From Acidimicrobiia bacterium (GTDB lineage Bacteria > Actinomycetota > Acidimicrobiia > Acidimicrobiales > Aldehydirespiratoraceae), in contig JAGWAO010000006.1 in assembly GCA_021296315.1 (NCBI GenBank), positions 8,977-72,976 on the forward strand: a stretch of 64,000 nucleotides of DNA, read 5' to 3'. A program made the position numbers and the translations under genes. Below the pieces are notes generated by a model. The model saw only the letters and a program-made list of their open reading frames with translations. It searched no databases and was not told the DNA's origin. Below are positions 4,010 through 60,414 of the stretch, piece by piece (positions within the stretch are counted from its first letter, which is position 1; every line of letters begins with the position of its first letter).

Positions 4010-5251
4010 ATGGCTGCACGCGGTCGCATCAGCCAGGCGCTGTTGAGGGCAGGCTCGCGCTGGGCGCGCGACCTGCTGACGGTGCGCAGCGCCTTCGCGG
4101 CGCTGGTGATGGCTGCAATCGCCAGCCTGGTCGCCGGCCTGATCCTGGCGTCGATCACCGACACGCTGGAGGAATTGCCGGGTTTGTTGCTGCTGGTGCC
4201 GGCGGCGATCGCGGTGAAGGGCAACATCTTCGGGGCGCTGGGCAGCCGGCTGGGCACCGCCATCCATGCCGGCACATTCCGGCTGTCGAACCGGTGGGAC
4301 TCGGTGATGGCGGAGAACGCGGTCGCGTCGGTAACGCTGAGCCTCCTGCTGGGCGTGGCGTTGGCGATCATGGCCAAGGGCGCCGCGCTGGCCTTCAACA
4401 TCTCCCCGACGATGAGCCTCGCCGATTTCGTGGTGATCTCAGCGCTGGGGTGCCTGATAGCCGCCTTCGTGGTGCTGGCGATCACTCTGGCGACCACGGC
4501 CGGCGCGGTCCGATTCGGATGGGATCTGGACAACGTGGTCGCACCGATGGTGACGGTCGCGGGGGATGTGGTGACCCTGCCGTCGCTGGTGGTGGCGGCC
4601 GAGCTAGCCGGGTTCAAGATTCTCACGCCGTCGGTTGCGTGGGCGCTGGGCGTGCTGGCGGCCCTCTCGGCGGTGTGGGCTCTTCGAAGCGGGCTGATGG
4701 AGTTGCGCAAGATCATGCGCGAGTCGATACCCGTGCTGATCGCGGCGGGCATGCTCGACCTGGTGGCCGGGATCACGGTGGAGAAGCGCATCGAGGACTT
4801 TGTTGCCTTCCCGGTGCTGCTCGTTCTGCTGCCGGGCTACCTGGCCACGGCCGGAGCGCTCGGGGGTGTGCTGTCGAGCCGCCTGTCCACCAAGCTGCAT
4901 CTCGGCCTGGCCAGGCCCTCAGTAGTGCCCTCGGGAGAGGCGAGAGTCGATCTCGCCACCACTTTCGCAATGGCGATTCCGGTGTTCGCGCTGCTCGGCC
5001 TGGTGTCGTCGATCGCGGCCGGCCTGACGGGCCATGCCGGCCCTTCGCTGGCAGATCTGGTCGCGGTGGCTGTGCTCGGCGGCCTGCTGGCCACCGTGCT
5101 GATTGTGGTGGTTGCCTATTACGGAACGCTTGCAGCCGTGCGGTTCGGAGTCGACCCCGACACCTACGGCATTCCCATGGTCACGTCCTCGCTGGACTTG
5201 GCCGGGGCGTTCACCCTGATCGTCTCGGTGGTCCTGGTGGGCGTGGTCTAG
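4010..5251 (+). CDS. MgtE/SLC41-like divalent cation transporter (two MgtE membrane repeats, no cytosolic CBS domain)
   Basis: Two internal repeats carry the MgtE signature: PAAIAVKGNIFGALGSRLGTAIHAG and LPGYLATAGALGGVLSSRLSTKLHLG. Polytopic hydrophobic profile. Confidence 0.7.
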   Translation: MAARGRISQALLRAGSRWARDLLTVRSAFAALVMAAIASLVAGLILASITDTLEELPGLLLLVPAAIAVKGNIFGALGSRLGTAIHAGTFRLSNRWDSVMAENAVASVTLSLLLGVALAIMAKGAALAFNISPTMSLADFVVISALGCLIAAFVVLAITLATTAGAVRFGWDLDNVVAPMVTVAGDVVTLPSLVVAAELAGFKILTPSVAWALGVLAALSAVWALRSGLMELRKIMRESIPVLIAAGMLDLVAGITVEKRIEDFVAFPVLLVLLPGYLATAGALGGVLSSRLSTKLHLGLARPSVVPSGEARVDLATTFAMAIPVFALLGLVSSIAAGLTGHAGPSLADLVAVAVLGGLLATVLIVVVAYYGTLAAVRFGVDPDTYGIPMVTSSLDLAGAFTLIVSVVLVGVV

Positions 5252-5348
5252 AGGCCGAGTGGGAGGGAGCTCCTAATGAGAGTCTTCGCGACAATCCGAG
5301 CGAGGCCGTGGCCCGAGCGGCCCGTGAGCGAAGCGAACAAGAGCGGGC
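5248..5348 (+). repeat. modular interspersed repeat, copy A
   Basis: ctagaggccgagtgggagggagc, a spacer, then cgagcgaggccgtggcccgagcggcccgtgagcgaagcgaacaagagcggg. The first TAG is the stop of the MgtE-like gene. Confidence 0.9.
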
Positions 5349-5405
5349 ACTACTGACAGGCAAGGTGTCGCGCTTGAGACCTACGATGACTTGAGGAGGG
5401 ACCTG

Positions 5406-6647
5406 ATGGATGACAGACCTCGCAACTTGCGGGAGATGCTGGCCGAGGCCAAGGACACCTCCGAGCTGATGGTGGACCTGGCTTACGCCGCGCTCTACTT
5501 CGGTGACCCCGACATGGCCGACGAGGTGGGCGCGCTCGAGGAGCGGATGAGCCACCTCGTGCAGGACATGAGAGCGGTGTGCATCCTGGCCGTGCGCCAC
5601 CCCCGCGACGCCGACGGCATGTCATCGGTCCTTCAGGTGGTCTCCGCTATCGAGCGCATCGCCAATGACGCGGTCGACATTGCCCGTATCGTCACCCACC
5701 GGGTCGGCATACCGGCCGAGCTCGTGGCTGACCTGAGTGCGGCCGAGGAGGTGTCGCACCGGGTGTTGGTCTCGGACGGCTCGCTTCTCGCCCACCGCCG
5801 CCTGGCCGACCACGAGATGCCGGCCAAGATGGGTATGCGGGTAATGGCGGTGCGTCGGGAGCGCGAGTGGATCACCGATGTGGGAGGCGACACGGTTCTC
5901 GTTCCCGATGACGTGCTGTTTCTGCGGGGTTCGCCCGACGGCATCGACGAGTTGCGCAGCCTGGCCGGATCTCCGGACTGGATGCCGCCGGAGGAGCCCG
6001 ACGGTCCGATCGCCACCGACCTCGACCGTGCGGTGGACGTGCTGGTTGAGATGAAGGACCTCTCGGAGGTGGCTGTCGGCTTGGCCTACTCGTCGCTGGT
6101 GCTGCGGGACGAGAGCCTTGCCGCTGAGGTGCGTCACCTCGAGGACCGCCTTGACGAGATGAAGGACCGTCTGGAGGAGTGGGTGCTGCGCGCCGCCAGG
6201 GAACACGGGGACCACTCAGGTTTGCGGGGGTTGCTGCACCTGTCGCAGGCGGCGGAGGATCTGGGCGACCAGGCTCAGCAGATGGTGTGGATCATCGAGC
6301 GCCAGGAGCAGATCCACCCGATATTGGCCGTCGCTCTCGGCGACAGCGACGAAGTGGTGGCGCACATACCGGTGGCGGAGGGCTGCGCGGTCGACGGCAG
6401 GACGCTGGCCGACCTGAGGCTGAACATCGAGCCCGGCTTCACCGTGCTGGCGATCCGCCGTGGGGGCCAGTACCGCTACCGGCCGCGCGGCGAGGTACAG
6501 CTTGCGCCCGGAGATGCTCTAATCGCTAGCGGCCCAGACGAGGGGCGAGATCGGCTGGCCGAGATGTGTGGCTGGCGGCTCATCAACAGAGACGACGACA
6601 CCGCGATGGTCTTCGAGCCGTTGGATGAGAGTCTGCCGACTGCCTAG
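5406..6647 (+). CDS. PhoU-like / TrkA-C (RCK_C) domain regulatory protein, duplicated architecture
   Basis: ATG 5406 lies 6 nt after GAGGAGGG. Two copies of a helical PhoU-like segment (LMVDLAYAALYF.., DLSEVAVGLAYSSLVL..), each followed by a TrkA-C-like segment (..GDTVLVPDDVLFLRGSPDGIDEL, ..LAPGDALIASGPDEG). Confidence 0.7.
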   Translation: MDDRPRNLREMLAEAKDTSELMVDLAYAALYFGDPDMADEVGALEERMSHLVQDMRAVCILAVRHPRDADGMSSVLQVVSAIERIANDAVDIARIVTHRVGIPAELVADLSAAEEVSHRVLVSDGSLLAHRRLADHEMPAKMGMRVMAVRREREWITDVGGDTVLVPDDVLFLRGSPDGIDELRSLAGSPDWMPPEEPDGPIATDLDRAVDVLVEMKDLSEVAVGLAYSSLVLRDESLAAEVRHLEDRLDEMKDRLEEWVLRAAREHGDHSGLRGLLHLSQAAEDLGDQAQQMVWIIERQEQIHPILAVALGDSDEVVAHIPVAEGCAVDGRTLADLRLNIEPGFTVLAIRRGGQYRYRPRGEVQLAPGDALIASGPDEGRDRLAEMCGWRLINRDDDTAMVFEPLDESLPTA

Positions 6648-6713
6648 TGGCCCGGCGAGGACGCAGACCGGTGCAGCGCGCTGCAACGCGCTGCGGCGCT
6701 AGCTTCACCGGCC

Positions 6714-7595
6714 ATGGTGACTCCCGCCAGCCGGCTCTGCATGCTCACCGTTCACGCCCATCCCGATGACGAGGCTTCCAAGGGCGCGCCCACGGTGGCC
6801 CGCTACCACGCCGAGGGCGTGCGCACCGTGCTGGTGTGCTGTACGGGAGGAGAGGAGGGCGAGATCCTCAACCCTGCGCTGGACAAGCCCTCGATGGCCG
6901 ACAAGCTGGCCGAGATTCGCGCCGAGGAACTGGCTCGGGCCGCGTCAGTGATCGGCTACGACGAGGTGGTGATGCTCGGGTATCGCGACTCGGGTATGGA
7001 AGGGTCGGAGGCCAACGCCCACCCCGACTGCTTCGCCAATGCCGACCTGGAGGAAGCCGTAAGCCGCCTCGTCTCCGTGATCCGCCAGCACCGGCCCCAG
7101 GTGATCGTGACCTATCCCGAGGATCAGGGCGGCTACATGCACCCGGACCACATGCGGGTTCACGACATCTCCGTTCCCGCCTTCGAGCGCGCCGACAACC
7201 CCCAGTATCGCCCCGACTTGGGCGAGCCTTGGTCGCCGGCCAAGCTCTACTACACGCTCTGGTCCCGCAAGCGCATCGAGGAGCGACATCAGGCGTTCAA
7301 GGATCTTGGCTTGAAGTCGCCGTACAGCAAGTGGTGGTTCAAGCGCCCTTCCACCGACGACCTGATCACCACTCAGGTTCCCGTGGACGGGTTCATCGAT
7401 GCGCGCATCGAGGGACTGCTGGCCCACGCGACCCAGATCGATCCCGAGTCGACCTTCTGGTTCGGATTGCCCCCGGAGGTCGAGCGTTCCATTCACCCTT
7501 ACGACGACTACGTGCTGGCTCGCGGCCCCCGCCCCGCGGCGCTGCCCGAGCGTGATCTGTTCGAGGGCCTGCGGCCCGGCGCGGCCAGCGAGTAG
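6714..7595 (+). CDS. mca: mycothiol S-conjugate amidase
   Basis: LmbE/PIG-L signature VHAHPDDE..CTGGEEGEILNP..GGYMHPDH. Full-length colinearity with actinobacterial Mca, including LYY, AHATQIDP and the C-terminal ELFEG-type tail. Confidence 0.8.
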   Translation: MVTPASRLCMLTVHAHPDDEASKGAPTVARYHAEGVRTVLVCCTGGEEGEILNPALDKPSMADKLAEIRAEELARAASVIGYDEVVMLGYRDSGMEGSEANAHPDCFANADLEEAVSRLVSVIRQHRPQVIVTYPEDQGGYMHPDHMRVHDISVPAFERADNPQYRPDLGEPWSPAKLYYTLWSRKRIEERHQAFKDLGLKSPYSKWWFKRPSTDDLITTQVPVDGFIDARIEGLLAHATQIDPESTFWFGLPPEVERSIHPYDDYVLARGPRPAALPERDLFEGLRPGAASE

Positions 7596-7602
7596 GCCTG
7601 AC

Positions 7603-7977
7603 GTGGCGCCGGAGCCTCTCGGCGAGAGATGGCTGGAGGCCGTAGCGGTCGAACTGGAGGCTGTCGACACTGCCGGCTCAGCAGACGGCGTGGCTCAGGT
7701 CGTCGTGAGCGGCTCGCCGTCAGGAACCGCCCCCTTCCATGTCGTGGTGGCTGACGGTCGCCTTAGCGTGGCGGCCGGACGGCATCCTGAACCGGACATG
7801 GTGCTGTCATGGTCCTACCGGGACTTCGTGCAGGTTTGGCAGGGTGGGCTCTCGCTGGCAACGGCCTACATGTCGGGCCGGATGAAGCTCGAGGGGGACC
7901 AGGTCCTGCTGTTCGATGGATGGCGACCGCTCTTGCGCTCGTCCCAACTCCGGGTGGCTCTCGCCTCTCTGCGCTGA
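7603..7977 (+). CDS. SCP2 sterol-binding domain protein
   Basis: GTG 7603 lies just after the mca stop. C-terminal AYMSGRMKLEGDQVLL is typical of the SCP2 fold. The upstream part of the track ORF overlaps mca out of frame. Confidence 0.6.
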   Translation: MAPEPLGERWLEAVAVELEAVDTAGSADGVAQVVVSGSPSGTAPFHVVVADGRLSVAAGRHPEPDMVLSWSYRDFVQVWQGGLSLATAYMSGRMKLEGDQVLLFDGWRPLLRSSQLRVALASLR

Positions 7978-8055
7978 AGCCGGCGGGCATCGCTTCTGCC
8001 GGCTTCGTGCGGCGCCGATCGTCCGATCTGGCCGCCGGCCAGGAGCGTCCGCAAA

Positions 8056-8192
8056 CTAGTGAGAGTCCGTCGTGTCGCAGCGGTGTCATTCCCGCTCTTG
8101 TTCGCTGCGCTCACGGGCCGCTCGGGCCGCGGCCTCGCTCCGCGCCTCCGCAGAATCGTCCACAGATCGCTCCCTATCCGCTCGGCCTCTAG
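8056..8192 (-). repeat. modular interspersed repeat, copy B (with 3' tail)
   Basis: The reverse complement reads ctagaggccgagcggatagggagc...gagcgaggccgcggcccgagcggcccgtgagcgcagcgaacaagagcgggaatg. It starts 5 nt after the ChbG-like stop on the same strand. Confidence 0.9.
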
Positions 8193-8197
8193 GCAGT

Positions 8198-9037: not shown

Positions 9038-9102
9038 AGCCTTGACGGTACCTGACGCTGGCGCTGGGCCGGTTCGACTCCTGGCCCCACGACCGGTCCG
9101 GG

Positions 9103-9774: not shown

Positions 9775-9881
9775 CGCGTCTGCCTCCCTTCACGGGGTAG
9801 ATCCACAGGATGGACATGGCTGCCATCAGAGGCCCCGCAGCCGGCGGAGGACCAGGGGCGATTGGGCGGCTCCCGCGGTGA

Positions 9882-10088: not shown

Positions 10089-10094
10089 GTGAAC

Positions 10095-11917: not shown

Positions 11918-11952
11918 GTCGGTGATCCTAATGACGCCCCCGCACGCCGGTC

Positions 11953-14378: not shown

Positions 14379-14470
14379 GGCTTGAGGGTAGCCGCAGCCG
14401 GTGACAGCGCTTGCTCAGTGGTGCTGAGTCTTCGAGACGCTCGCCGTCTGCTAGACGCTCGCCGACCCTC

Positions 14471-15947: not shown

Positions 15948-15982
15948 TCCGGCCGCGGTTGCCTGAACCAGAGCGAACCAGC

Positions 15983-16966
15983 ATGGTCGCCGCCGGGGTC
16001 CACATCGTGCCGCTGATGCCGTCCGGCGACGTCATCGCGCTGGCCGTGGAAGCAGAGCGGCTCGGATACGACTACTGCCTGGTGGCCGACGAGGGGTTCC
16101 ATCCCGATGTCTACGCCTGCCTGGGAGCAATTGCCCGGGCCACCGACCGGATAGTCCTCGGTGTGCTGACCAACGCGTACACGCGGCATCCGGCGGTGAC
16201 CGCGGCCGCGGCCGCCACCGTCAATGAACTGTCCGGGGGTCGGCTGGTGGTCACCCTGCTGGCCGGAGGATCGATGGTGCTCAGCCCGATGGGAATCGAG
16301 CGATCCCGCCCCGCCCGGGTGGTGGCCGACTGCGTGCAAGTGCTGAAGCGGCTGTGGTCGGGCCGGGAGGTGAGCTGGAGTGGCCAGACCTGCTCCCTCG
16401 ATCGGGCCCGGCTCGGCATGGGACCCCAGCCGATCCCCATCTGGATCGCCAGCCGGGGACCGCGCCTGCTGGAGCTGGCCGGACGTCAGGCCGACGGCGT
16501 CATCCTCACCGTCAAGCCCGATCTCGGCGCCGCTCTCAATCTCGTGGAGTCGGCCGCAGCGATGGCCGGTCGTCGCGAGCCTCAGCGCTTCTACCTGGGG
16601 CGGATCTGCTACACGCCGAAGCTGCTGGAAGGTCAGCGCCGAACGCTTTCGTTCGTGCTGATGGACTCGCCCCGCCGGGTGCTGGAGTCGCTGGGCCTCA
16701 GTGCCGACGAGATCGCGGTCGTGGAGCACGCCGCCGGAGCGAACCGTCCCGAGTTCGTCGACGAACTGGTGACCGGCGACCTGCTCCAGCGCTACCAGGT
16801 GTCCGGCACACCCACCGAGTGCCGGGCCGAGGTTGAGCAGTTGGCTGGCCGGCACGGCCTGGACGGCGTGCTGATCGACGCGCTGTCATCGGATCTCTCC
16901 GAGAACCTCGCCGTGCTGGAAGAGTCCCTGCCCCTCATCGGTGACGCCCAGAGGCCGAGCGGGTAG
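15983..16966 (+). CDS. LLM class F420-dependent oxidoreductase (Mer-like)
   Basis: ATG 15983. Motifs LGYDYCLVADEGFH, LGVLTNAYTRHP, GRLVVTLLAGG, ADGVILT. The last five codons and the TAG stop lie inside repeat copy C. Confidence 0.8.
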   Translation: MVAAGVHIVPLMPSGDVIALAVEAERLGYDYCLVADEGFHPDVYACLGAIARATDRIVLGVLTNAYTRHPAVTAAAAATVNELSGGRLVVTLLAGGSMVLSPMGIERSRPARVVADCVQVLKRLWSGREVSWSGQTCSLDRARLGMGPQPIPIWIASRGPRLLELAGRQADGVILTVKPDLGAALNLVESAAAMAGRREPQRFYLGRICYTPKLLEGQRRTLSFVLMDSPRRVLESLGLSADEIAVVEHAAGANRPEFVDELVTGDLLQRYQVSGTPTECRAEVEQLAGRHGLDGVLIDALSSDLSENLAVLEESLPLIGDAQRPSG

Positions 16967-17049
16967 GCGGCAATGCGTGAGAGTCCTGGTGGGGTGCTCA
17001 GCGAGGCCGTGGCCCGAGCGGCCCGTGAGCGCAGCGAACAAGAGCGGGA
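16948..17049 (+). repeat. modular interspersed repeat, copy C
   Basis: ccagaggccgagcgggtaggcggc...cagcgaggccgtggcccgagcggcccgtgagcgcagcgaacaagagcggga. The second TAG is the stop of the LLM gene. Confidence 0.9.
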
Positions 17050-17121
17050 TACACCACGCTGCATCGTGTGGGGCCATCACCGCCGCGGCGGGGCTGCCGC
17101 CCGGCCCTAGCATCTGCTCCT

Positions 17122-19138: not shown

Positions 19139-20142
19139 CCAGACCTGTCGTCACCATTGCCATTGGCCGGTCCCACTACCGGCGAATGTTCAGCGATGGC
19201 GCCCTCGCCGACCTGGCCGACGCGGCTCACATCGTGCACCACTCCAGCGACGAGCCCGCCTCCAAGCAGGACCTGCTGGACGTCCTTGCCGAAGCCGATG
19301 CCTGCATCACCAGCTGGGGAGTGGCCCCCCTGGACGCCGAGGTGGTGGCGGCTGCGCCCCGCCTGGGGCATATGGCCCACATGGGCGGCAGCGTGAAGCG
19401 ATTCGTGTCCGACGCGGTGTGGGAGCGCGGCATCCGGGTCACCAGCGCCGCGATCACCCTGGCGCGGGATGTAGCCGAGACCACCCTCGGCCTGATGATC
19501 GTGGGTCGCAAGCGCATCTGGCCCTTGGGAAACCATGTGCGCGACGGCGGATGGCGGGACCGTCCGGTGTGGGACCGGTGGGACGCCCGGGAACTCAACC
19601 GCTCGACGGTGGGCCTGATCGGCGCCGGCAATGTCGGCCGCCACGTGGTCGAACTGCTTGCCCCCTTCTCGGCGACCATCCTGGTCGCCGACCCGTATCT
19701 GAGCGACGAGGAGGCGGCCGGACTCGGAGTTGAGAGGGTTGAGCTGGCAGAGCTCATGGATCGCAGCGATGTCGTGTCGATCCATGCCCCGGACACTGAC
19801 CAGACCCGGCACATGATCGGTACCGAGTTGTTGAGCCGCTTGCGCGACGGCACCGTGCTGATCAACACGGCCCGGGGCAGCATTATCGACGAGGAGGCCC
19901 TCATTGACGAGCTGGCCACCGGACGGATCTTTGCCTTCCTCGACGTGACCGACCCCGAGCCTCCAGCATCCGACAGCCCGCTGCGCCGCCTCGAGAATGT
20001 GGTGGTCACCCCCCATATCGCAGGCTGCATCGAAAACTGCCACCGCATGGGGGAGATGGCCGTCGAGGAGGTCCGCCGCTTCCTGGCCGGTGAGCCCGCC
20101 GTCCATGAGGTCCGGCCCGACATGCTCGACCGGATCGCCTAG
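19135..20142 (+). CDS. D-isomer-specific 2-hydroxyacid dehydrogenase
   Basis: GTG 19135 overlaps the kinase stop (GTGA). NAD motif VGLIGAGNVGRHV. Also INTARGSIIDEEAL and VTPHIAG. Confidence 0.85.
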   Translation: MTRPVVTIAIGRSHYRRMFSDGALADLADAAHIVHHSSDEPASKQDLLDVLAEADACITSWGVAPLDAEVVAAAPRLGHMAHMGGSVKRFVSDAVWERGIRVTSAAITLARDVAETTLGLMIVGRKRIWPLGNHVRDGGWRDRPVWDRWDARELNRSTVGLIGAGNVGRHVVELLAPFSATILVADPYLSDEEAAGLGVERVELAELMDRSDVVSIHAPDTDQTRHMIGTELLSRLRDGTVLINTARGSIIDEEALIDELATGRIFAFLDVTDPEPPASDSPLRRLENVVVTPHIAGCIENCHRMGEMAVEEVRRFLAGEPAVHEVRPDMLDRIA

Positions 20143-20144
20143 AT

Positions 20145-20197
20145 CCGTTCTTGACGTAGTTGTACCGCTGTAGGGCGTTCAACTACGTCAAGAACGG
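20145..20197. terminator. perfect 18-bp inverted repeat (17-nt loop) between convergent genes
   Basis: ccgttcttgacgtagttg (20145-20162) pairs perfectly with caactacgtcaagaacgg (20180-20197). Locally AT-richer than the surroundings. No U-tract. Confidence 0.6.
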
Positions 20198-20247
20198 TTG
20201 GGGCCGGGATGTGCGACGCCCACTGTTCCGGTAGGGGCGGCCCGGAC

Positions 20248-20326
20248 CCGCCGTCAGCTGAGGATGAGGCCGCCGTCAGCTGAGGATGAGGCCGCCGTCA
20301 GCTGAGGATGAGGCCGCCGTCAGCTG
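20248..20326 (-). repeat. 22-bp tandem repeat, 3.6 copies, copying the 3' end and stop codon of the SDR gene
   Basis: ccgccgtcagctgaggatgagg occurs at 20248, 20270 and 20292, plus a partial copy at 20314-20326. The functional TGA (20298-20300) is in the third copy. Confidence 0.9.
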
Positions 20327-25637: not shown

Positions 25638-26441
25638 GTGCGGGTCGTCACCTGGAACGTGAACTCCCTGAAGGCGCGCCTCGGCCGGGTGCAGCGCTGG
25701 ATCGAGTCCTTCTCGCCGGATGTGGTGTGCCTGCAGGAGACCAAACTCGCCGACGACGCGTTTCCCGGGCTGGCCTTCCAGTCGCTCGGATACGACTGCT
25801 TCCACAACGGGGAGGGACGCTGGAACGGTGTAGCGGTGCTGAGCAGGGTGGGGCTCACCGACCCAGTGGCCGGATTCGGGGCCGGCATCGAGCCCGACTG
25901 TGACGCCCGCCTGGCCTGGGCCACCTGCGGGGGCGTGCGGGTGGCGTCGTGCTACGTGCCCAACGGTCGGGCCGTCGGCCATGACCACTACCACTACAAG
26001 CTCGACTGGATGCGCCGGCTGAGAGCCTCCCTCGACGCTCAGGCCGATCCCGGTCGGCCCGTCCTGGTGTGCGGCGACTTCAACATCGCTCCCGACGATA
26101 GGGACGTGTACGACCCGGCCGCCTTCACCGACACCACCCACACCAGCGCGCCGGAGCGGGAGAGGCTCGCGGGCCTGCTCGAATGGGGCCTGGTCGATGT
26201 GTTCCGCGACCACCATGATGACGGCGGGCTGTTCACGTGGTGGGACTACCGGGGAGGCGACTTCCACAAGCGCAAGGGAATGCGCATCGACCTCGTTCTG
26301 GCCTCCCGGCCGGTCGCCGACGCGGCCAGCTTTGCGCTCATTGACCGCAATGAGCGCAAAGGCCCCAAGGACGATCCTCCCAGCGACCACGCGCCCCTGT
26401 TCATCGACTTGGAGGCCGAGCGGATGGGCGGCAACTGGTGA
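25638..26441 (+). CDS. xthA: exodeoxyribonuclease III
   Basis: MRVVTWNVNSLKARL..VVCLQETK..GDFNIAP..WWDYR..RIDLVL..PSDHAPL. The last nine codons and the stop are encoded by repeat copy D. Confidence 0.9.
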   Translation: MRVVTWNVNSLKARLGRVQRWIESFSPDVVCLQETKLADDAFPGLAFQSLGYDCFHNGEGRWNGVAVLSRVGLTDPVAGFGAGIEPDCDARLAWATCGGVRVASCYVPNGRAVGHDHYHYKLDWMRRLRASLDAQADPGRPVLVCGDFNIAPDDRDVYDPAAFTDTTHTSAPERERLAGLLEWGLVDVFRDHHDDGGLFTWWDYRGGDFHKRKGMRIDLVLASRPVADAASFALIDRNERKGPKDDPPSDHAPLFIDLEAERMGGNW

Positions 26442-26510
26442 GAACAGTTGAGGGGTGCCGAGCGAGGCCGTGGCCCGAGCGGCCCGTGAGCGCAGCGAAC
26501 GGGAGCGGGA
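26410..26510 (+). repeat. modular interspersed repeat, copy D
   Basis: ttggaggccgagcggatgggcggc...cgagcgaggccgtggcccgagcggcccgtgagcgcagcgaacgggagcggga. Overlaps the xthA 3' end. Confidence 0.9.
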
Positions 26511-26583
26511 GTGGCGCCGGCGCCAAGCGACGGGCTGTCACCCGTTCGCGCTCGCACCTGGACGAGGGCACCCTGGCGAAACC

Positions 26584-30576: not shown

Positions 30577-30677
30577 CTAGAGGCCGAGCGGACCGGTTTG
30601 AAGTTCGACACGGGTCTCGCACCATGCCGAGCGAAGCCGTGGTCCGAGCGGCCCGTGAGCGCAGCGACAGGAGCGGG
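30577..30677 (+). repeat. modular interspersed repeat, copy E
   Basis: ctagaggccgagcggaccgg...cgagcgaagccgtggtccgagcggcccgtgagcgcagcgacaggagcggg. Lies in the divergent helicase/zincin intergenic region. Confidence 0.9.
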
Positions 30678-30745
30678 CGACAACGGCCTCGCACCCCATA
30701 CGGCGAGCACCGTCCGGCGCACAGCTGACCGGTACTGTCTGGCCG

Positions 30746-46720: not shown

Positions 46721-46735
46721 CTTCCGCGGTCGGGC

Positions 46736-46957: not shown

Positions 46958-47018
46958 AGGACGGCAGCTTAAAGCGAGCGCGGACCGGTGGGAAGTCTGT
47001 AGCGTCGTTGCAGCGCCA

Positions 47019-47122
47019 TTCCCGCTCCTGTTCGCTGCGCTCACGGACCGCTCGGGCCACGGCCTGGCTGTACGCCTCACGAATTCGTCCACTGGCCGCA
47101 ACCTCTCCGATCGGCCTCCTGG
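47019..47122 (-). repeat. modular interspersed repeat, copy F
   Basis: The reverse complement reads ccaggaggccgatcggagagg...ccaggccgtggcccgagcggtccgtgagcgcagcgaacaggagcgggaat. Lies upstream of the small 46957 ORF on the same strand. Confidence 0.85.
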
Positions 47123-47176: not shown

Positions 47177-48862
47177 ATGGCACCGCTCGTTCTGGATGCG
47201 GCAACTTTGCGCCGCGCCATCGTCGGCTTCCACGGAGGACTCGCCGACCACCGCCAGGTGATCGACAATCTGAACGTCTATCCGGTCCCGGACGGCGACA
47301 CCGGAACCAACATGACGCTCACCATGCAGTCGGTCGTCGAGAGCCTCGACGGCGTCTCCGACGATCTTGAACCTCTGTGCACCGCAGTCGCACACGGAGC
47401 GCTCATGGGCGCCCGGGGCAACTCGGGGGTGATCCTGGCCCAGATCCTCAGAGGTGTGTCCGGCGTGCTGCGCGACTCGGCTGCAGCCGGCTCCGCGCCC
47501 GACGCACCGGTGGTGGCCCGAGCCCTGGCTGCCGCCAGCGACGGCGCGTACTCGGCGGTGGCCCGGCCCGTGGAGGGCACCATCCTCACGGTCATCCGCG
47601 AGGCCTCGGAGTCGGCCCAGGCCGCCGCCGCGGCCGGAGGGAACTTGACTGATGTATTCGACGCGGCCCGCGAGCGCGGCTATGACGCTCTGGATCGAAC
47701 CCCTGAGATGTTGGCGGTGCTGGCCGAGGCCGGGGTGGTGGACGCGGGTGGAGCCGGGCTGCTGCTGCTGTTCGATGCCTGTCTGGCCGAGGTCGACGGC
47801 CGGCCCATGCCCGAAGCCCCCGAGCCGCCGGCACCGCCCACAGCCGTCACCAGCGCGGCGGTACCGGCGGAGGAGTCGTCGATCGCAGACCTGCGCTACG
47901 AGGTGATGTTCCTGCTGGACGCGCCCGACCCCTCCGTCGACGGCTTCAAGGCTGCGTGGCAGACCATCGGGGACTCGATCGTCGTGGTGGGCGGGGACGG
48001 AATCTGGAACTGCCACATCCACACCGACGACATCGGCGCGGCCATCGAGGCCGGGATCGCGGTGGGCCGGCCCCACCGCATCCAGATCACGGACCTGCTC
48101 GACCAGGCGGCCGAGCACTCCGAGGCGTTCACGGCGCCGGAATCGGTACGCCCCGACGATGACGCCGTCATCGCGCCGCCCGTGCCGGTGGAGATCACCG
48201 AGGCCGACCGATGCTCGGTGGTGGCAGTGGGAGCCGGAGCGGGCGTGGTGGACATCCTCATGTCGATGGGGGCCCACCGCGTGGTGGCCGGCGGCCAGTC
48301 CATGAACCCCTCCACCGCGGAGTTGCTGGCAGCCGTCGACTCGCTTCCCACCGGCCATGTCGTGGTGCTGCCCAACAACAAGAACATCATCCCGGTGGCC
48401 GAACAGGTCGACGGCGAGACCGAGCGCACGGTGGGCGTCGTGCCCACTCGCAGCGTGGTCGAGGGGATCTCCAGCCTCCTGGCCTTCTCTCCGGGGGCCA
48501 CCGCGGCCCAGAACTCCGAGGCGATGGCAGTCGCAGCCGAATCGGTGACCCACGGCGAGGTCACCCAAGCTGTCCGTGACGCCTCCACTTCGGCTCGCCC
48601 CATCGCCGAGGGGGACTGGCTCGGCATCGGCCCCGACGGGATCGCGGCAGTTGAATCGGATGCGGCCGCGGCGGCGACCGCTCTGTTGGGCACCATCATC
48701 GACGACGACCACGAGTTGCTAACCGTGCTCACCGGCGTCGACGCGGACACCGTCACCACCGAGGCCATCGTCGGCTACGTGGCCGAGCACCATCCTGAGG
48801 TAGAAGTCGAGGTGTCAGACGGCGACCAGCCCCTGTACCCGTACTACTTCGGCCTGGAATAG
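47177..48862 (+). CDS. DAK2 domain fusion protein YloV
   Basis: NVYPVPDGDTGTNM and ARGNSGVIL (Dak2), followed by a DegV-like C-terminal half. It sits upstream of recG, the usual position. Confidence 0.85.
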   Translation: MAPLVLDAATLRRAIVGFHGGLADHRQVIDNLNVYPVPDGDTGTNMTLTMQSVVESLDGVSDDLEPLCTAVAHGALMGARGNSGVILAQILRGVSGVLRDSAAAGSAPDAPVVARALAAASDGAYSAVARPVEGTILTVIREASESAQAAAAAGGNLTDVFDAARERGYDALDRTPEMLAVLAEAGVVDAGGAGLLLLFDACLAEVDGRPMPEAPEPPAPPTAVTSAAVPAEESSIADLRYEVMFLLDAPDPSVDGFKAAWQTIGDSIVVVGGDGIWNCHIHTDDIGAAIEAGIAVGRPHRIQITDLLDQAAEHSEAFTAPESVRPDDDAVIAPPVPVEITEADRCSVVAVGAGAGVVDILMSMGAHRVVAGGQSMNPSTAELLAAVDSLPTGHVVVLPNNKNIIPVAEQVDGETERTVGVVPTRSVVEGISSLLAFSPGATAAQNSEAMAVAAESVTHGEVTQAVRDASTSARPIAEGDWLGIGPDGIAAVESDAAAAATALLGTIIDDDHELLTVLTGVDADTVTTEAIVGYVAEHHPEVEVEVSDGDQPLYPYYFGLE

Positions 48863-48883
48863 CCGTCGGCGGCCACGACGCCG

Positions 48884-51028: not shown

Positions 51029-51036
51029 GTCTGAGA

Positions 51037-51579
51037 GTGAGTATTCGTGTCGTGGCGGGCTCGGCCAAGGGCCGCCGGCTGGCAGCTCCCGATGGCCTCC
51101 TCACCCGGCCCACCCCCAACCGAGTGCGCGAGGCCGTGTTCAACTCGCTCTACTCGCTCGATGCCATCGACGGTGCCCGGGTTCTGGACCTCTTCGCCGG
51201 CACGGGTGCCTTGGGGATCGAGGCGCTGAGCCGGGGCGCGGCCGAAGCGGTGTTCGTCGAGCGCGACCAGGCGGTGGCCGACGTGCTGCGCAGCAACCTC
51301 GAGGCCACCCGCTTGGCGGACGCAGCCACCGTCATGGTCGTCGACGTGGAAGCGGCTCTCGCCGACCTGGCGTGTGGCCGCTTCGATGTCGCACTCGTGG
51401 ATCCCCCGTACGCCTTCGACGCTTGGCCGGAGTTGCTGTCGCGGGTTCCAGCTGAACTGGTCGTGGCCGAGTCGGATCGTCCGGTGGATGTGGGGCCGCG
51501 CTTTGCCATCCACCATCACAGGCGTCACGGCGGTACCGTGGTGACGTTCGCACAAGCTGCCGAGAGGCCGAGCGGATAG
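51037..51579 (+). CDS. rsmD: 16S rRNA (guanine966-N2)-methyltransferase RsmD
   Basis: GTG 51037. Motifs GRRL..P..LLTRPTPNRVREAVFN, LDLFAGTGALGIEALSRGA, VDPPY. The last five codons and the TAG stop lie inside solo repeat module I. Confidence 0.85.
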   Translation: MSIRVVAGSAKGRRLAAPDGLLTRPTPNRVREAVFNSLYSLDAIDGARVLDLFAGTGALGIEALSRGAAEAVFVERDQAVADVLRSNLEATRLADAATVMVVDVEAALADLACGRFDVALVDPPYAFDAWPELLSRVPAELVVAESDRPVDVGPRFAIHHHRRHGGTVVTFAQAAERPSG

Positions 51580-51585
51580 GGAGCA
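51563..51585 (+). repeat. solo 5' module of the interspersed repeat (copy I)
   Basis: gagaggccgagcggatagggagc. Only the first position differs from the module of copy B. Contains the rsmD stop and the GGGAG preceding the coaD GTG. Confidence 0.7.
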
Positions 51586-51589
51586 ATCA

Positions 51590-52075
51590 GTGACCCGTGT
51601 GCTGTACCCCGGATCCTTCGACCCGATCCACTACGGCCATCTCGAGATCATCGAGACCATCGCCCAACTATTCGATGAGGTGGTCGTGGCGGCCATGCGC
51701 AATCCCCAGAAGGGGGAGGGCCTGTTCAGCCTCGACGAGCGGGAGCAGATGATCAAGGAGTGCTGCGCTCACCTGCCCAATGTCTCGGTCGCGATGTTCT
51801 CCAACCTGGTGGTCAGTCTGGCCCGAGACCTGGAGGCCGACTTCATCGTCAAGGGGCTGAGGGCGGTCTCCGACTTTGAGAACGAGCTTCAGATGGCCCA
51901 GATGAACCACGCTCTGGCCGGTGTGCAGACGATCTTCATCCCCTCAGCCAGCAAGAGGTCGTTCGTGGCCTCCAAGCTGATCCGCGAGGTCGTCCGCCTC
52001 GGCGGGGACGTCTCATCCATGGTGCCTGAGTCGGTCCAGGCGCGGCTGGGCGGCCGTTTCGAGCAGGAACAATGA
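51590..52075 (+). CDS. coaD: pantetheine-phosphate adenylyltransferase
   Basis: VLYPGSFDPIHYGHLEII, and ..GLRAVSDFENELQMA. Confidence 0.92.
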   Translation: MTRVLYPGSFDPIHYGHLEIIETIAQLFDEVVVAAMRNPQKGEGLFSLDEREQMIKECCAHLPNVSVAMFSNLVVSLARDLEADFIVKGLRAVSDFENELQMAQMNHALAGVQTIFIPSASKRSFVASKLIREVVRLGGDVSSMVPESVQARLGGRFEQEQ

Positions 52076-52656: not shown

Positions 52657-53120
52657 ACAAACCCCAGCGGCTGATTGTCGACTGCGCCCGGCTGGAAGCG
52701 GGTTCGGTCGACCGCATTGAAGTCGTCCGCCAGTGCCATCTGGATGATCCCGGTGTGCAGGGGGCTGCCGTGGTGGACGGCGTTGTGGACCTCGAAGTGA
52801 CGGTGCGAGGGGCCGGAGGGGCCTACGTAGCCGTCGGACGGGTGGCCGGCACGTGGACGGCGGAGTGCCGCCGCTGCCTCGAGGAGGTTCGCGGCCCGCT
52901 GGAGGCGTCGATGCGGGAAGTGTTCGAGTGGGAGCCCACCGAGGGGGAGACCTGGCCGATCAACGATCAACGCATCGACTTGGCTCCCGCGGCCCGGGAG
53001 ACGGCGATGCTGGCCCTGCCGCTGGCGCCGCTGTGCTCTGAGGACTGCGCTGGGCCCGTGCCGGAGCGCTTCCCGACCGGGCCCGCGGCGGCCGCTCGGC
53101 CTCTCATCACCGACGTGTAG
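52653..53120 (+). CDS. YceD/DUF177 family protein
   Basis: TTG 52653 overlaps the upstream stop (TTGA). Motifs ECRRCLEEV and PLCSEDCAG (paired Cys motifs). Position is immediately upstream of rpmF. Confidence 0.7.
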   Translation: MNKPQRLIVDCARLEAGSVDRIEVVRQCHLDDPGVQGAAVVDGVVDLEVTVRGAGGAYVAVGRVAGTWTAECRRCLEEVRGPLEASMREVFEWEPTEGETWPINDQRIDLAPAARETAMLALPLAPLCSEDCAGPVPERFPTGPAAAARPLITDV

Positions 53121-53190
53121 ACCGATGCGGTGGCCGGTAGGCTGGCCGGTCGCACATAGTCCGCTCGGCCGCCGACGATCAGGATCCCTC

Positions 53191-53370
53191 ATGGCTGTTC
53201 CCAAGAAGAAGACCTCCAAGGCCAAGGGGCGCAGCCGGAGGGCCTCCGCATGGCGGATTCGCCCGGGCGGCCGCAGCGCCTGCAGCCGCTGCGGCGCGGT
53301 CAAGCGGCCCCATCGCGTCTGCGGCAACTGCGGGTGGTACCACGACCGGCAGGCCATCGAGGTCGAATAA
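53191..53370 (+). CDS. rpmF: 50S ribosomal protein L32
   Basis: MAVPKKKTSKAKGRSRRA...CSRCG...CGNCGWY. Confidence 0.92.
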   Translation: MAVPKKKTSKAKGRSRRASAWRIRPGGRSACSRCGAVKRPHRVCGNCGWYHDRQAIEVE

Positions 53371-53555
53371 CCGACCCTTCGAACGCCCACCCGCAGTCGA
53401 GAATCAGACCTCATGGCGCGGTGATGGAACCTTTGTCGGCGTCGAGTGGTCTGAAACAGCATGGACCATGCGGTCGATAGCGGAATCCGGCGTCCTGCGT
53501 TCCCTTCGGCGATGGAACCGGTAGTCAACTCGACCACTCTGTGCTCGCCGGAGCC

Positions 53556-54542: not shown

Positions 54543-54634
54543 CGTCAGAACGCGGTTGAGGGCGAGAGGTGGCCTGCGCCCTCGACGGTATGGTTGTCGG
54601 TTGCATCAACGAGATACCACGCACGGAGGAGCCG

Positions 54635-54925
54635 ATGCCGGCAGAAACCCACGTGGAGCAGGCACCCATGGGGCGTGAGGAAGTCTTGGCGCTCATTCGC
54701 GACCGTCTTGCGGACATCCTCGAGATCGATCCCTCCGACATCGCCGAGGGAGCCTCGTTTGCCGACGACCTCGATGCCGACTCGCTCGCGCTCATAGAGC
54801 TGGTGGAGGGGATCGAGGAGGAGCTGGCGGAGCGTGCGGTCGGCTTTCGCATCGAGGACGAGGATCTGGAAGACCTGCGTTCCGTCCGAGATGCCGTTGA
54901 CTACGTCGTAGCGAAGCTGGGTTGA
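54635..54925 (+). CDS. acpP: acyl carrier protein
   Basis: ATG 54635 follows GGAGGA. Phosphopantetheine attachment motif DLDADSLALIELV. Confidence 0.85.
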   Translation: MPAETHVEQAPMGREEVLALIRDRLADILEIDPSDIAEGASFADDLDADSLALIELVEGIEEELAERAVGFRIEDEDLEDLRSVRDAVDYVVAKLG

Positions 54926-55617
54926 CAGCTCAGGCCGCTTCGGCGGACACTGCGACGCTGATGGACCGGCTTGGCCACCGGTTCGATGACGCCGCGTTGC
55001 TCGAGTTGGCCTTGACCCATCGCTCCTGGAGCGCGGAGCACTCGGGATCGTCCTCCAATGAGCGGCTGGAGTTCCTCGGAGACGCTGTCCTGGGCCTTGT
55101 CGTGACCCAGAGGCTCTACTCGCGTTTCGGCGAATGGTCCGAAGGCGACCTGGCCAAGACCCGCGCCTCGCTCGTCAACTCGGCCATGCTGGCCGTGGTG
55201 GGCAGATCGATCGGCCTGGGCGACCTGCTGCGCCTGGGCCGGGGGGAGGTCGCTTCGGGAGGCCGCGAGAAGTCCTCGATCCTGGCCGACGCGATTGAGG
55301 CGGTGATCGGGGCGGTATATCTCGACGGCGGCATCGGCGCGGCCGACAATGCCGTCGGCCGACTCCTCGGCTCGCGCATCGATGCAGCTGCCCGCGCTCC
55401 CGGCCACGCCGACTTCAAGACAAGGCTCCAGGAACTGGCGGCCCGTCTAGGATTCGCCCCGCCGGTCTACGAAGTGACCACCAGCGGGCCTCCGCACGAC
55501 ACGATGTTCGAAGCCAGGGTTCATGCCGGCACCGCCAGCGGCATCGGCAGGGGAAGCAGCAAGAAGGACGCCGAACAGCACGCGGCCGAGATCGCCTACG
55601 CGACTCTCGCCCCAGAG
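54922..55617 (+). CDS. rnc: ribonuclease III (catalytic plus dsRBD region; no stop codon of its own, the ORF continues in frame to 56655)
   Basis: ALTHRSW..NERLEFLGDAVL (signature), ADAIEAVIGAVYLD, dsRBD DFKTRLQE..GSSKKDAEQHAA. Start is TTG 54922 (TTGA overlap with the acp stop) or ATG 54961. Confidence 0.85.
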
Positions 55618-55757
55618 GCCCAGCGGCCCGTGAGCGCAGCGAACAAGAGCGGGCAATCAGAGGCCCAGCGGCCCGTGAGCGCAGCGAACAAGCGCAGCGA
55701 ACAAGAGCGGGCAATCAGAGGCCCAGCGGCCCGTGAGCGCAGCAAGAAGGAGCGGGC
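55613..55757 (+). repeat. three tandem truncated units of the interspersed repeat (copy G)
   Basis: Units of 45, 58 and about 42 bp: cagaggcc|cagcggcccgtgagcgcagcgaacaagagcgggcaat. The 5' module is joined directly to the core box. Unit 2 carries an extra 13-bp gcgcagcgaacaa duplication. Confidence 0.9.
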
Positions 55758-55791
55758 ACACCGAGTCCGACCGTGTTGCGGAGGTCAAGTC

Positions 55792-56655
55792 ATGAGCACA
55801 TCGCGCTCGAACCGGGGCCTCGCCTTCGAGCTGCCGGAAGTCGAGACGATACGGCGGGACCTCGAACGCGAGATCATCGGTCGCAAGGTCAAGACCGCAG
55901 AGGCCTCGAGCATGAAATGCCTGCGCCGCTACCACACCCGCAAGGCCTTCACCTCACAGTTGGAGGGAGCCAAGATCACCGACGTGAGGCGGGTGGGCCT
56001 GTACCTGATGATCGAGCTCAGCACCGAGATGCAGCTTGTGCTGTCGCTCGGCTCGTCGGGTTCGCCCCGCCGCAACGCCAACAAGCATCCCAGGGTCGCG
56101 GGCACCGAAGTGGTGATCTCTTTCACGCAGTACGGCCAGTTGCGCTTTGTGGACCCCGAGGGCACAGGTCAGCTGTTCGTGGTGCCTTGCGACGACTTCT
56201 CCACAGCCCTGCCGGATGTGGCTGAACTCGGCCTCGATCCGGTCGCCAAGCCGATCTCCTGGACCGAGATGGGTCGGCTTCTCCTGCAGAGGGACACGAA
56301 GCTCAAGACTCTGATCACCGACGACACATTCGTGGTCGGCATCGGCGACATCTACGCGGACGAGATCCTGTTCGAGGCGGGGGTGCGCTTCGACCGGATC
56401 GCCAACACCCTGTCCACTCAGGAGATCCGCCGCCTGCACCGGGCGCTCGTCGGCACGATGCACGACGCTATGAAGTACCGGGGGACGTCGGTCCCCGCTC
56501 GCCCCTTCGTCGATCCGTTCGGCCAGCCGGGCAGCTATGCGGGCCACCTCAAGGTATGGGGTCGGCACGGAGCGCTGAGCGAGAGGTCGAGGACTCCGAT
56601 CAAGCGGACCAAGTTCCGCGGCAGCTGGACCTACTACTGCGACACGCAGGTCTGA
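55792..56655 (+). CDS. Fpg/Nei-family protein, degenerate (no N-terminal Pro, zinc finger eroded)
   Basis: GGAGG then 7 nt then ATG 55792. ELPEVETIRRDL, H2TH GIGDIYADEILFEAGV, RGTS. The C-terminus WGRHGALSERSRTPI..YYCDTQV retains 1 of the 4 zinc-finger Cys. Confidence 0.75.
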   Translation: MSTSRSNRGLAFELPEVETIRRDLEREIIGRKVKTAEASSMKCLRRYHTRKAFTSQLEGAKITDVRRVGLYLMIELSTEMQLVLSLGSSGSPRRNANKHPRVAGTEVVISFTQYGQLRFVDPEGTGQLFVVPCDDFSTALPDVAELGLDPVAKPISWTEMGRLLLQRDTKLKTLITDDTFVVGIGDIYADEILFEAGVRFDRIANTLSTQEIRRLHRALVGTMHDAMKYRGTSVPARPFVDPFGQPGSYAGHLKVWGRHGALSERSRTPIKRTKFRGSWTYYCDTQV

Positions 56656-56730
56656 GCACCGCCATTTTCTGACGTTCAGCAGGCCGGGGGATACCCGGTT
56701 CCGAGAACCGACCGAACTAGCGTCGCGCCC

Positions 56731-59700: not shown

Positions 59701-60222
59701 GACATCCGGGCGGCCCGCAGGGACCTCAACAGGGTGATCCGGTCGATCGACGCGGAGATCAAGACGGTGTTCAGCTCGGCCTTCGTCGATGTGGCCGCCA
59801 ACTTCGAGGTGCTCTTCGAGGCGCTGTTCCCGGGTGGCGAGGGGCGCCTCAGCCTCACCGAACCCGATGACCTGCTCGATACCGGCATCGAGATCTCGGC
59901 CAAGCCGTCAGGCAAGAACGTGAAGCGGCTGTCGCTGCTCTCGGGCGGGGAGCGGACCTTGGCCGCGCTGGCCTTCCTGTTCGCGGTGTTCCGTAGCCGG
60001 CCTTCGCCCTTCTATGTGATGGACGAGGTGGAGGCCGCTCTCGACGATGTCAACCTCCATCGCTTCCTGAAGCTCATAGACGAGTTTCGCACCGATGCAC
60101 AGCTCGTGATCGTCACCCACCAGAAGCGGACCATGGAGGCTGCCGACTGCCTGCAAGGGGTCTCGATGAAGCCCGGCGGCTCTTCCATGGTCGTGTCCGA
60201 GCGCGTCTCCGACGCCGCCTGA
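56731..60222 (+). CDS. smc: chromosome segregation protein SMC
   Basis: GTG start gives (M)YLKTLTLKGFKSF..GPNGSGKSN. Long coiled coils. Signature LSGGERTLAALAFLFA and Walker B FYVMDEVEAALD. Confidence 0.93.
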   Translation: MYLKTLTLKGFKSFAEPASIRLEPGVTVVVGPNGSGKSNVVDAVAWVLGAQAPSAVRSARMDDVIFAGTAHKPALGRAEVSLTIDNSDRMLPMAASEVRITRTLFRSGESTYALNGTPCRLLDIVELLSDTGVGRQQHMIVSQSQIDAVLNARPADRRVVVEEAAGIRKYRKRRERAERRLLASDGDLTRMSDLLREVRRRLRPLQKQAEAARRHADLLSELEALRVHLAGREIAGMREQLRLHKEQGEAQAVLQADLRAELDDLNASVATDEQRLARHGMDDHSERLARLEGLRARAAGLAAVAVERQRGIEHQRAALADHDLAAGLQAELERCRKELSAVVLSAAAADSDRRRLEHLQERLEADRAAFGARWGDVMGFDVGMASEAAEARGELSALQSTIELSQSEQHRLAERLEESERRLQDLAGRVDDHRGELDRCDRRIAARRAELAVAEAALADASSALEGAVEARAEAEGELRHWTARSEALAMALEEAARPVPVDVQAATDDVLGLLGGLVEVDPGVEAAFAAAAGDAISAVVVRHAATARRVLDSVEASDAGAAVIALEGNGSDGATGMPVHRLGLEPLRGRVRAADPDVDRLLDVLLASTALVEGDWRTAADTWMRHAGVVVVTPAGDRLSSRGWRLGVHGAAGLRPALAEAEQRVEAARKARERADAACESARSGLDESRERVDEFGGRLAAIEGSAASATDAINRAESDRRDLDTASSTLRDHLTETTRRLDEAVGRAAQIESRLPELEQAEAKARQRSREAAEARSSLDRRASEVALMAAEQSATDAGLEQRQQMLQARASELEDRLARHRASRAAATDRMAGLEREATVLDALRRAVEERTGILNAGLAEIREVRRRHSEEVRALAASLDDLRRRHADAESRYDTLRQAESRRDIEEAELRTLLQGAVERLRDAYGLSPQQAASAPLPELPDGLGPDQRMDQLAAELEIMGPVNPLALAEYDELYERHELLSGQMDDIRAARRDLNRVIRSIDAEIKTVFSSAFVDVAANFEVLFEALFPGGEGRLSLTEPDDLLDTGIEISAKPSGKNVKRLSLLSGGERTLAALAFLFAVFRSRPSPFYVMDEVEAALDDVNLHRFLKLIDEFRTDAQLVIVTHQKRTMEAADCLQGVSMKPGGSSMVVSERVSDAA

Positions 60223-60322
60223 TCCGGCGACCAGTCGAGGTCCTGCTGCCAAGGCTGGTAGTCGCCCGCCACTACCGAACATGCGCGGGCAGGTGCAAAC
60301 CCGTCGCGTCGGGGCGGGTGTC

Positions 60323-60414
60323 TCCCGCTCTCGCTCGCTGCGCTCACGGGCCGCTCGGGCCACGGCCTCGCCTGGATGAACCTGATTCGCTTGCCTACCC
60401 GCTCGGCCTCTAGC
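60323..60414 (-). repeat. modular interspersed repeat, copy H
   Basis: The reverse complement reads gctagaggccgagcgggtaggcaagc...ggcgaggccgtggcccgagcggcccgtgagcgcagcgagcgagagcggga. Lies between smc and the htrA-like gene, antisense to both. Confidence 0.9.

Follow-up and report, generated by a model that had tools for sequence, protein, structure and literature searches.

The repeat family in the window

The DNA considered here, hereafter the window, is a stretch of 64,000 nucleotides from contig JAGWAO010000006.1 of an Acidimicrobiia bacterium (GCA_021296315.1), with a G+C content of 66-72% throughout and no tRNA or tmRNA in its 64 kb. It carries a dense, modular family of interspersed repeats, which an initial annotation made from the letters alone had described as tied to gene ends and stop codons, a description that our analysis bears out. 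We consider it likely that the units are copies of a non-autonomous transposable element bounded by terminal inverted repeats (TIRs), that is, a family of miniature inverted-repeat transposable elements (MITEs) with a mosaic build. The evidence that carries this comprises the inverted repeat itself, a duplicated target site, two sharp length classes, orthologous sites that are filled in one genome and empty in another, near-identical young copies and the taxonomic spread of the family.

All nine loci first listed for the window were recovered in place by core matching, repeat grouping and nhmmer, the repeat-grouping search of the window collecting the same places as that list. A 52-nt version of the core is found with at most 2 mismatches at 5297(+), 8090(-), 16998(+) and 26459(+), with no such match in 100 dinucleotide-preserving shuffles, and the 23-nt 5' module matches twice, at 8169-8191(-) and 51562-51584(+). 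Using nhmmer profiles built from the copies of related genomes, the large copies were delimited at 5250-5354, 16950-17081, 26412-26555 and 30579-30683 on the forward strand and at 8043-8190, 46972-47118 and 60277-60411 on the reverse strand. The same profiles detect the lesser loci, namely the tandem locus at 55619-55759(+), with its three partial units, and the solo 5' module at 51563-51594(+).

The anatomy of the unit emerged from an alignment of 175 core matches together with their flanks (labels such as L072 and L108 in the following denote fetched loci). A complete copy consists, in order, of TNA, arm L (GAGGCCGAGCGGATAGG), a variable spacer S of two length classes (from which elements of 137 and 148 nt result), a 49-nt core C (GCGAGGCCGTGGCCCGAGCGGCCCGTGAGCGCAGCGAACAAGAGCGGGA), a variable R-inner segment, arm R (CCTATCCGCGnnGGCCTC) and again TNA. 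Complete copies thus defined are 136-149 nt long rather than the ~100 bp first proposed, the second arm being situated beyond the unit recognized at that time. Since arm R lies past what had been called a loose tail, ~45 nt outside that unit, no hairpin had been found.

The copies of the window illustrate both the complete form and its derivatives. A copy without the 3' part (modules L-S-C) at 5250-5354(+) follows the MgtE gene, the stop codon of which (TAG, 5249-5251) is composed of a flanking T and the AG of the element. The complete 149-nt copy of the long class at 8042-8190(-), with a decayed 3' arm, is placed 7 nt after the YdjC stop and is flanked by CTA...CTG, with N being T on both sides. 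In the long-class copy at 16950-17097(+), the open reading frame (ORF) of a luciferase-like monooxygenase stops inside the 5' arm, at a TAG (16964-16966) that sits in the GGGTAGG of the 5' module. Similarly, the complete 148-nt copy at 26411-26558(+), between the genes for an Exo_endo_phos (xthA-like) protein and a Na/H exchanger, is entered over 30 nt by the Exo_endo_phos ORF, which has its stop at a TGA in the spacer. The copy at 30579-30683(+), with a diverged 3' part, occupies the divergent intergenic region between a UvrD-like helicase gene (-) and a Zincin_1 gene (+) and abuts no stop codon. Two complete copies are antisense: one of 149 nt (46971-47119, -) between PEPCK and a FakA-like gene, which has an internally deleted, arm-to-arm counterpart at the orthologous L110 site, and one of 136 nt belonging to the short class (60276-60411, -) between smc and an HtrA-like protease gene.

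The remaining loci of the window are solo arms or partial units. A solo 5' arm (module L) at 51563-51594(+) contains the rsmD stop (TAG, 51577-51579), and coaD starts at 51590. A remnant solo 5' arm, TGA-GAGGCCGAGCGG, at 53092-53106(-) is an addition to the loci listed before, and the equivalent site in L072 is a 220-nt array of core units. At 55613-55759(+), three partial tandem core units with a period of 45/58 nt lie in frame inside a continuous ORF (54922-56655), in which an RNase III gene and an Fpg-like gene are joined over 577 codons, linked in frame by the three units derived from the core. In this ORF, the Fpg-like portion reads ...AFELPEVE as against the usual Fpg start MPELPEVE, and judging from the translation its catalytic N-terminal proline seems to be absent unless another start is used. 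Pfam searches agree with the flanking gene pairs previously called (MgtE / PhoU-TrkA, luciferase-like monooxygenase / DeoC aldolase, Exo_endo_phos / Na-H exchanger, RsmD / CoaD and RNase III / Fpg). The six stop-codon contacts noted at the outset are likewise correct, namely those of MgtE, YdjC (at its distance of 7 nt), the monooxygenase, Exo_endo_phos, RsmD and RNase III, the last of which reads through the tandem units.

Inverted ends, target duplication and insertion polymorphism

Complete elements fall into two sharp length classes of 136-139 nt (mostly 137-138) and 147-150 nt (148), which recur in the metagenome sample, and the distance from the 5' module to the core is 28, 32, 55-56 or 63-67 nt. 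Arm R is the inverted complement of the 5' module, giving an imperfect TIR with element ends GAGGCC...GGCCTC. In an alignment of 27 copies of the short class, the 21 pairs of the terminal helix are formed in 75.1% of the cells, whereas sliding the 3' partner by 1-3 columns gives 33-51%; 8 pairs are altered on both sides. The arms of young copies match at 19-20 of 22 positions, and the young consensus folds as a rod (z = -5.4 sense, -4.0 antisense). The median identity among complete copies is 75% and most of them are therefore old. There is no consistent reading frame across the copies. Comparing the modules directly, we found that the core holds both arm hexamers, GAGGCC and GAGCGG, in direct orientation, 7 nt apart in contrast to their adjacency in the arm. 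Beyond the complete form, the derivatives comprise L-S-C without R, L-C with the spacer cut to 4 nt, a Poriferisodalis-type L'-C-R, C alone, L alone, tandem C arrays with a period of 43-45 nt (with 7 units in L010) and minimal L-R hairpins (L047 6191 and L110 7758). In L017 (5095-5200), a complete copy is directly followed by a solo L arm and then by a tRNA-like gene on the opposite strand.

The flank logo of 60 complete copies reads C-Y-N-A|GAGG on the 5' side and CCTC|T-N-R-G on the 3' side: hence, the element sits in C-TNA-G with a 3-bp TNA on both sides. In 34 of the 60 copies, the two flanks agree in the variable N, versus 16.4 by permutation, a value of 34 being reached in none of 2000 shuffles, and registers shifted into the true flanks show no excess of matching bases. 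The pattern is repeated in an independent metagenome sample, where N matches in 20 of 33 complete copies and perfect TTA, TGA, TAA and TCA pairs within C...G are frequent. The clearest cases are young copies: two copies in L033 that are 99.3% identical occupy different sites, each of them C-TAA-G; two adjacent copies in L085 both have TTA; and the copies of L017 and L054, which lie 220 kb apart in one genome, are 94% identical. Genomes with young copies include, for instance, Ca. Aldehydirespirator CBDBEL01, OZ244832 and OY759762.

Several of the fetched loci are syntenic with the window or with one another, and filled and empty orthologous sites can be compared in at least six site pairs. In the FakA-like/recG interval, L072 has a complete copy (1275-1421, GAATAA-element-TAG), whereas the window (48861-48873, GAATAG) and L110 are empty. 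Similarly, L108 is filled at 6822-6910 (CTAG-element-TAG) and empty in the window (15150, TTAG) and L064. Further filled sites are found in L103 (2139-2275; empty in L002 and L018), L029 (3715-3885; empty in L091) and L113 (6218-6339; empty in L083), and an L-C copy in L110 corresponds to an empty site in the window (54544-54560). The view initially taken, that this is no obvious TIR-bounded MITE, has therefore to be revised for the full unit, which displays a terminal inverted repeat, a TNA duplication and empty sites in syntenic genomes. Orthologous sites also differ in the number of core units, with one at L018 ~3900-3940 versus four in tandem at L103 1560-1715, and this site behaves like a variable-number tandem repeat.

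Some of the differences between syntenic loci are larger than a single copy. The monooxygenase gene and its copy (window 15950-17105) are replaced by 20 nt in L108 (5995-6015), both versions ending in ...TAG|CATCTGCTCC, and a similar copy-plus-gene difference separates L029 (492-1563) from L091. One TAA...TAG slot contains an unrelated 150-nt intergenic sequence in the window (53370-53521) and in L110 and a 148-nt copy in L072 (6225-6372), and from the alignment it looks as if one replaced the other. We considered the 53370-53521 sequence as a second repeat family; it matches only its L110 ortholog. In L176 (5213-6750), a Rieske ring-hydroxylating oxygenase gene lies between two inverted copies with their L arms pointing outward, a layout that could be able to move as a composite unit. 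Two repeats of other kinds were also seen in the window. A 155-nt segment at 20140-20326 that is missing from the syntenic locus L108 has a perfect 18-bp inverted repeat (CCGTTCTTGACGTAGTTG...CAACTACGTCAAGAACGG) followed by ~3.6 copies of a 22-nt tandem repeat (CCGCCGTCAGCTGAGGATGAGG), and an 810-aa ORF at 32853-35285 is composed of a leucine-rich-repeat-like unit of 72 nt (24 residues) in at least 23 copies.

The phyletic range of the family was investigated by scanning a one-genome-per-species collection and metagenome contigs for an exact 22 nt of the core. The genome collection yielded at least 116 loci, and all 116 listed are in Acidimicrobiia assemblies: 46 in Candidatus (Ca.) Aldehydirespirator/Aldehydirespiratoraceae, 9 in Ca. 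Poriferisodalis, 2 in Microthrixaceae and 59 in unclassified Acidimicrobiales, Acidimicrobiaceae or Acidimicrobiia assemblies. Ca. Aldehydirespirator and Ca. Poriferisodalis represent different families. At least 120 further loci with the same pattern come from metagenome contigs, giving a total of more than 230; the CoaD protein of the window is identical to one on LXNJ01011411.1 (GCA_001753005.1), and the same record series supplies many of the metagenome matches. Core variants with CCCGTGAGCGC replaced by CCCTCAGGTCGC or CCCTCACGTCTC (L031 8-100, L052 (-) ~602 and L115 4151) suggest that there may be diverged sub-families missed by the 22-nt pattern. The pattern has no match in viral contigs, and a complete copy has none in plasmids and phages. 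No family had been recognized in these units at the outset, and in accord with this no catalogued RNA family matched: Rfam at gathering thresholds gave 0 matches over the whole window, and one copy scanned permissively had just two chance matches, both outside the core. A search of the available literature found no paper describing these repeats or mentioning Ca. Aldehydirespirator or Ca. Poriferisodalis. The family is previously undescribed.

Mobilization, gene ends and the conserved core

Under the MITE interpretation, a transposase supplied in trans would cut at the arms, insert the element into C-TNA-G and duplicate the TNA. In a genome of 69% G+C, most CTNAG sites would fall within genes, with insertions there being lost, and many of the remaining ones would be stop codons, where insertion would regenerate the stop, with the survivors piling up at gene 3' ends and between cistrons. 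Loss of R, S or L after insertion, or tandem amplification of C, would then produce the L-S-C, L-C, C-only, C-array, L-only and L-R forms. Among the insertion sequences of the IS5 family, the IS1031 group is reported to favor TNA and to produce an exclusive 3-bp repeat (PMC12016507), and actinobacterial relatives recognizing three nucleotides have been described (PMC2516522). The 3-bp TNA duplication seen here is the one reported for the IS1031 group, and an IS5/IS1031-type transposase is most likely the mobilizer. The putative parent element would be bounded by GAGGCCGAGCGGATAGG...CCTATCCGCGTGGCCTC and flanked by TNA. We looked for a parent insertion sequence in the form of inverted arms 0.3-4 kb apart; the matches are pairs of separate MITEs, one of which flanks the Rieske oxygenase rather than a transposase, and the arm-to-arm pattern has no match in metagenome contigs. 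It had been remarked earlier that no transposase is nearby, which is true, but normal for MITEs.

The target accounts for the contact with stop codons, because within C-TNA-G the triplets TAA and TGA are the TNA itself and TAG is N-A-G. With the coding strand of the flanks taken from a local codon-position score rather than from gene annotation, 75 genome-scan copies have an upstream flank that is coding on the same strand and 20 have one that is coding on the opposite strand, with 57 being unclear. Relative to the start of the element, a same-strand upstream stop falls at -2..0 in 23 of these 75 genome-scan copies and in 25 of 50 metagenome copies. Fourteen of those 23 junction stops are TAG, formed by N=T and the AG of the element, and six are a TAA or TGA that is the TNA itself. 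As expected for a palindromic target, such stops are seen in complete copies both at the L junction (5/22) and at the R junction (3/11). The window has 143 CTNAG sites, of which 123 are in coding sequence; 6 of the other 20 overlap a stop codon, and this 30% of tolerated sites matches the observed share of stop contacts. Thus, the link to gene ends arises from target choice combined with the loss of gene-disrupting insertions.

Several observations weigh against a plain MITE. The ~1.75 Mb of fetched loci yielded neither an autonomous element nor a transposase with matching arms, and three older filled/empty pairs lack a clean duplication, which we attribute to decay and regard as a weakness. 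The pattern of conservation is the reverse of that in a typical MITE, with a mean pairwise identity of 94-97% in the core, 85% in L, 44-69% in S and 51-62% in R. The core value is partly a matter of ascertainment, as the loci were picked by 22 core bases; however, the other 27 core bases are equally conserved, as is the core in the window's own copies, which were not selected by the pattern. In eight orthologous pairs, the identity is 90% for non-selected core bases and 91% for the first 13 nt of L (L13), against 68% for S, 72% for R and 79% for the mostly coding flanks; accordingly, after insertion the rate of change in the core is about a third of that in its own spacer and is also below that of the neighboring coding DNA. 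Finally, between co-directional genes the copies are sense rather than antisense in ratios of 41:10 (genome sample) and 38:14 (metagenome), or ~77% sense, though the codon-position score is crude and some loci are orthologous to one another, so that the counts are not fully independent. This bias is stronger in arm-less derivatives than in complete copies (10:4), and it counts against a plain MITE as a palindromic target alone does not predict it.

Our best guess is that the core and the first 13 nt of L are kept because they form a site that acts in cis and brings a further benefit when transcribed in sense together with the upstream gene. Taken further, the core GCGAGGCCGTGGCCCGAGCGGCCCGTGAGCGCAGCGAACAAGAGCGGGA and these 13 nt of the 5' arm might be a functional cis-element selected at each locus, the MITE being only the vehicle by which a common signal was wired onto many gene 3' ends across several families of Acidimicrobiia; we offer this only tentatively, as a reading with the odds against it. 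In line with it, the core survives the loss of both arms and is mostly in sense. Such a signal might act at the RNA level, at 3' ends or between cistrons, or might serve as the binding site of a protein, either of the host or domesticated and transposase-derived; a role of the core at the sequence level could thus be in RNA or DNA.

The same features, namely the sense bias in both samples, the conservation of the core beyond that of coding flanks in orthologs and the position directly after stop codons, would be expected if the units were a cis-acting structured RNA, i.e., a stabilizer in the 3' untranslated or intercistronic region, a processing site or a terminator, with the inverted ends being an RNA helix rather than transposon arms. 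There is also a rare core variant with G->A and C->T, GTGAGCGCAGCGAAC to GTGAACGCAGTGAAC, and two copies with C->T alone, which fit a small GC/GU/AU pair and reflect one or two events; the double change GTGAACGCAGTGAAC is carried by the tandem units of the L018/L103 site. However, RNAalifold detects essentially no covariation (term -0.26, -0.01 and +0.04 kcal/mol for 27 short-class copies, 33 long-class copies and 56 L-S-C segments, respectively), predicting only invariant GGCC-type pairs. Mismatches in the terminal helix are A-C in 62 cases versus G-U in 50, with no strand-specific wobble signature, the core alone is no better folded than shuffles (z = 0.10), the spacer is unconstrained and there is no Rfam match. 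Moreover, the duplication and empty sites demand a DNA insertion mechanism in any case. We therefore hold a primarily structured-RNA identity to be unlikely, and a role in RNA remains viable only as a secondary, exapted one of the core. Inspecting GUGAGC-GCA-GCGAAC by eye, we rejected a hammerhead, of which the essential CUGA is absent, and a k-turn, as there is no 3-nt bulge.

Mobilization of single-stranded hairpins by a Y1, IS200/IS605-like transposase of the RAYT (REP-associated tyrosine transposase) type, as in repetitive extragenic palindromes (REPs) and their doublets (REPINs), would derive the orientation bias from coupling to replication. Two inverted arms ~100 nt apart do resemble such a doublet and L-R minimal hairpins exist. 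Against this stand the 3-bp duplication with its variable base, as insertion of REP and IS200/IS605 elements makes none, and the arm, which does not form a palindrome headed by a conserved GTAG-type motif; a RAYT gene was not seen, though no search was aimed at RAYT and whole genomes were not searched. A REPIN origin is accordingly quite improbable.

About equally improbable is a relationship with the mycobacterial interspersed repetitive units (MIRUs), short units that expand in tandem and contain small ORFs overlapping the flanking stop and start. The likeness to MIRUs pointed out in the initial annotation stands as regards position, as the copies are intercistronic and overlap the upstream stop at their 5' end in the 23/75 and 25/50 copies mentioned above, and the core varies in tandem number between orthologous loci (1 in L018 and 4 in L103, with 7 units in L010). 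It does not extend to the downstream starts, which lie clear of the copies (by 16-58 nt in the window), nor to copy number, most copies being single. Copies are also found antisense and in divergent regions, and they have inverted arms and a target duplication, which MIRUs lack; the contact with stops, which MIRUs combine with contact with starts, is here a by-product of the C-TNA-G target. That the units are translated parts of real proteins, i.e., a repeated peptide module, can be dismissed with near certainty: the RNase III ORF runs in frame through three core units into Fpg and some upstream ORFs extend 16-30 nt into copies, but most copies are at or just after a stop, on either strand and in different frames or none, and the early rejection of a single protein domain in a conserved frame is upheld. 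An integron attC site, which would call for R''/L''-L'/R' boxes with GTTRRRY and for arrays of cassette genes next to an integrase, was likewise rejected, given ends of GAGGCC/GGCCTC and flanks of housekeeping genes in conserved synteny.

Significance and comparison with known repeat families

MITEs as a kind are well known, and it is the conserved core and the sense bias that a plain MITE leaves unexplained. The family under study cleanly illustrates how, in a high-G+C genome, a transposon with an A/T-containing target comes to look specific for stop codons. In practical terms, unmasked copies contaminate ORF calls and alter the C-termini of real proteins (xthA-like, the monooxygenase and rsmD), and they can fuse genes, as in the RNase III-Fpg ORF. 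Presence or absence of copies and tandem copy number provide markers for typing uncultured Acidimicrobiia. If the core is indeed functional, it would constitute a regulatory module spread by a MITE over a whole clade of uncultured bacteria.

The closest comparison is with the MITEs derived from IS1031, which are likewise short and non-coding, with terminal inverted repeats and a 3-bp TNA duplication; the ends of IS1031 begin with GAG, as do those of the family described here. It differs from them in being without a known parent, in having a core that is better kept than the arms and in the persistence of many arm-less derivatives. The eukaryotic relatives of this group, the PIF/Harbinger-Tourist elements, share the short non-coding build, the inverted repeats and the 3-bp TNA duplication. 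In their mosaic modules at gene 3' ends and their orientation bias, the units recall the bacterial interspersed mosaic elements (BIMEs) and REP mosaics of Escherichia coli, in which the REPs are palindromic, moved by RAYT and, unlike the units studied here, not known to make a target duplication. The Correia elements of Neisseria are MITEs of 100-155 nt that occur in two sharp length classes, duplicate a TA-containing target, are dense in intergenic regions and are co-transcribed with their neighbors. The present family resembles them in size, in its two sharp length classes and in target duplication; however, the sequence and the phylum are unrelated, the duplication is TNA, and it is the internal part that is conserved rather than, as in Correia elements, the arms. 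The pneumococcal BOX elements, with the organization boxA-boxB(n)-boxC, contain a middle module of ~45 nt in variable tandem number between end modules. There is no sequence relation to them, and the arms and duplication are clear in the family described here, but its organization as L-S-C(n)-R, with a C of 43-45 nt and n up to 7, follows the same plan.

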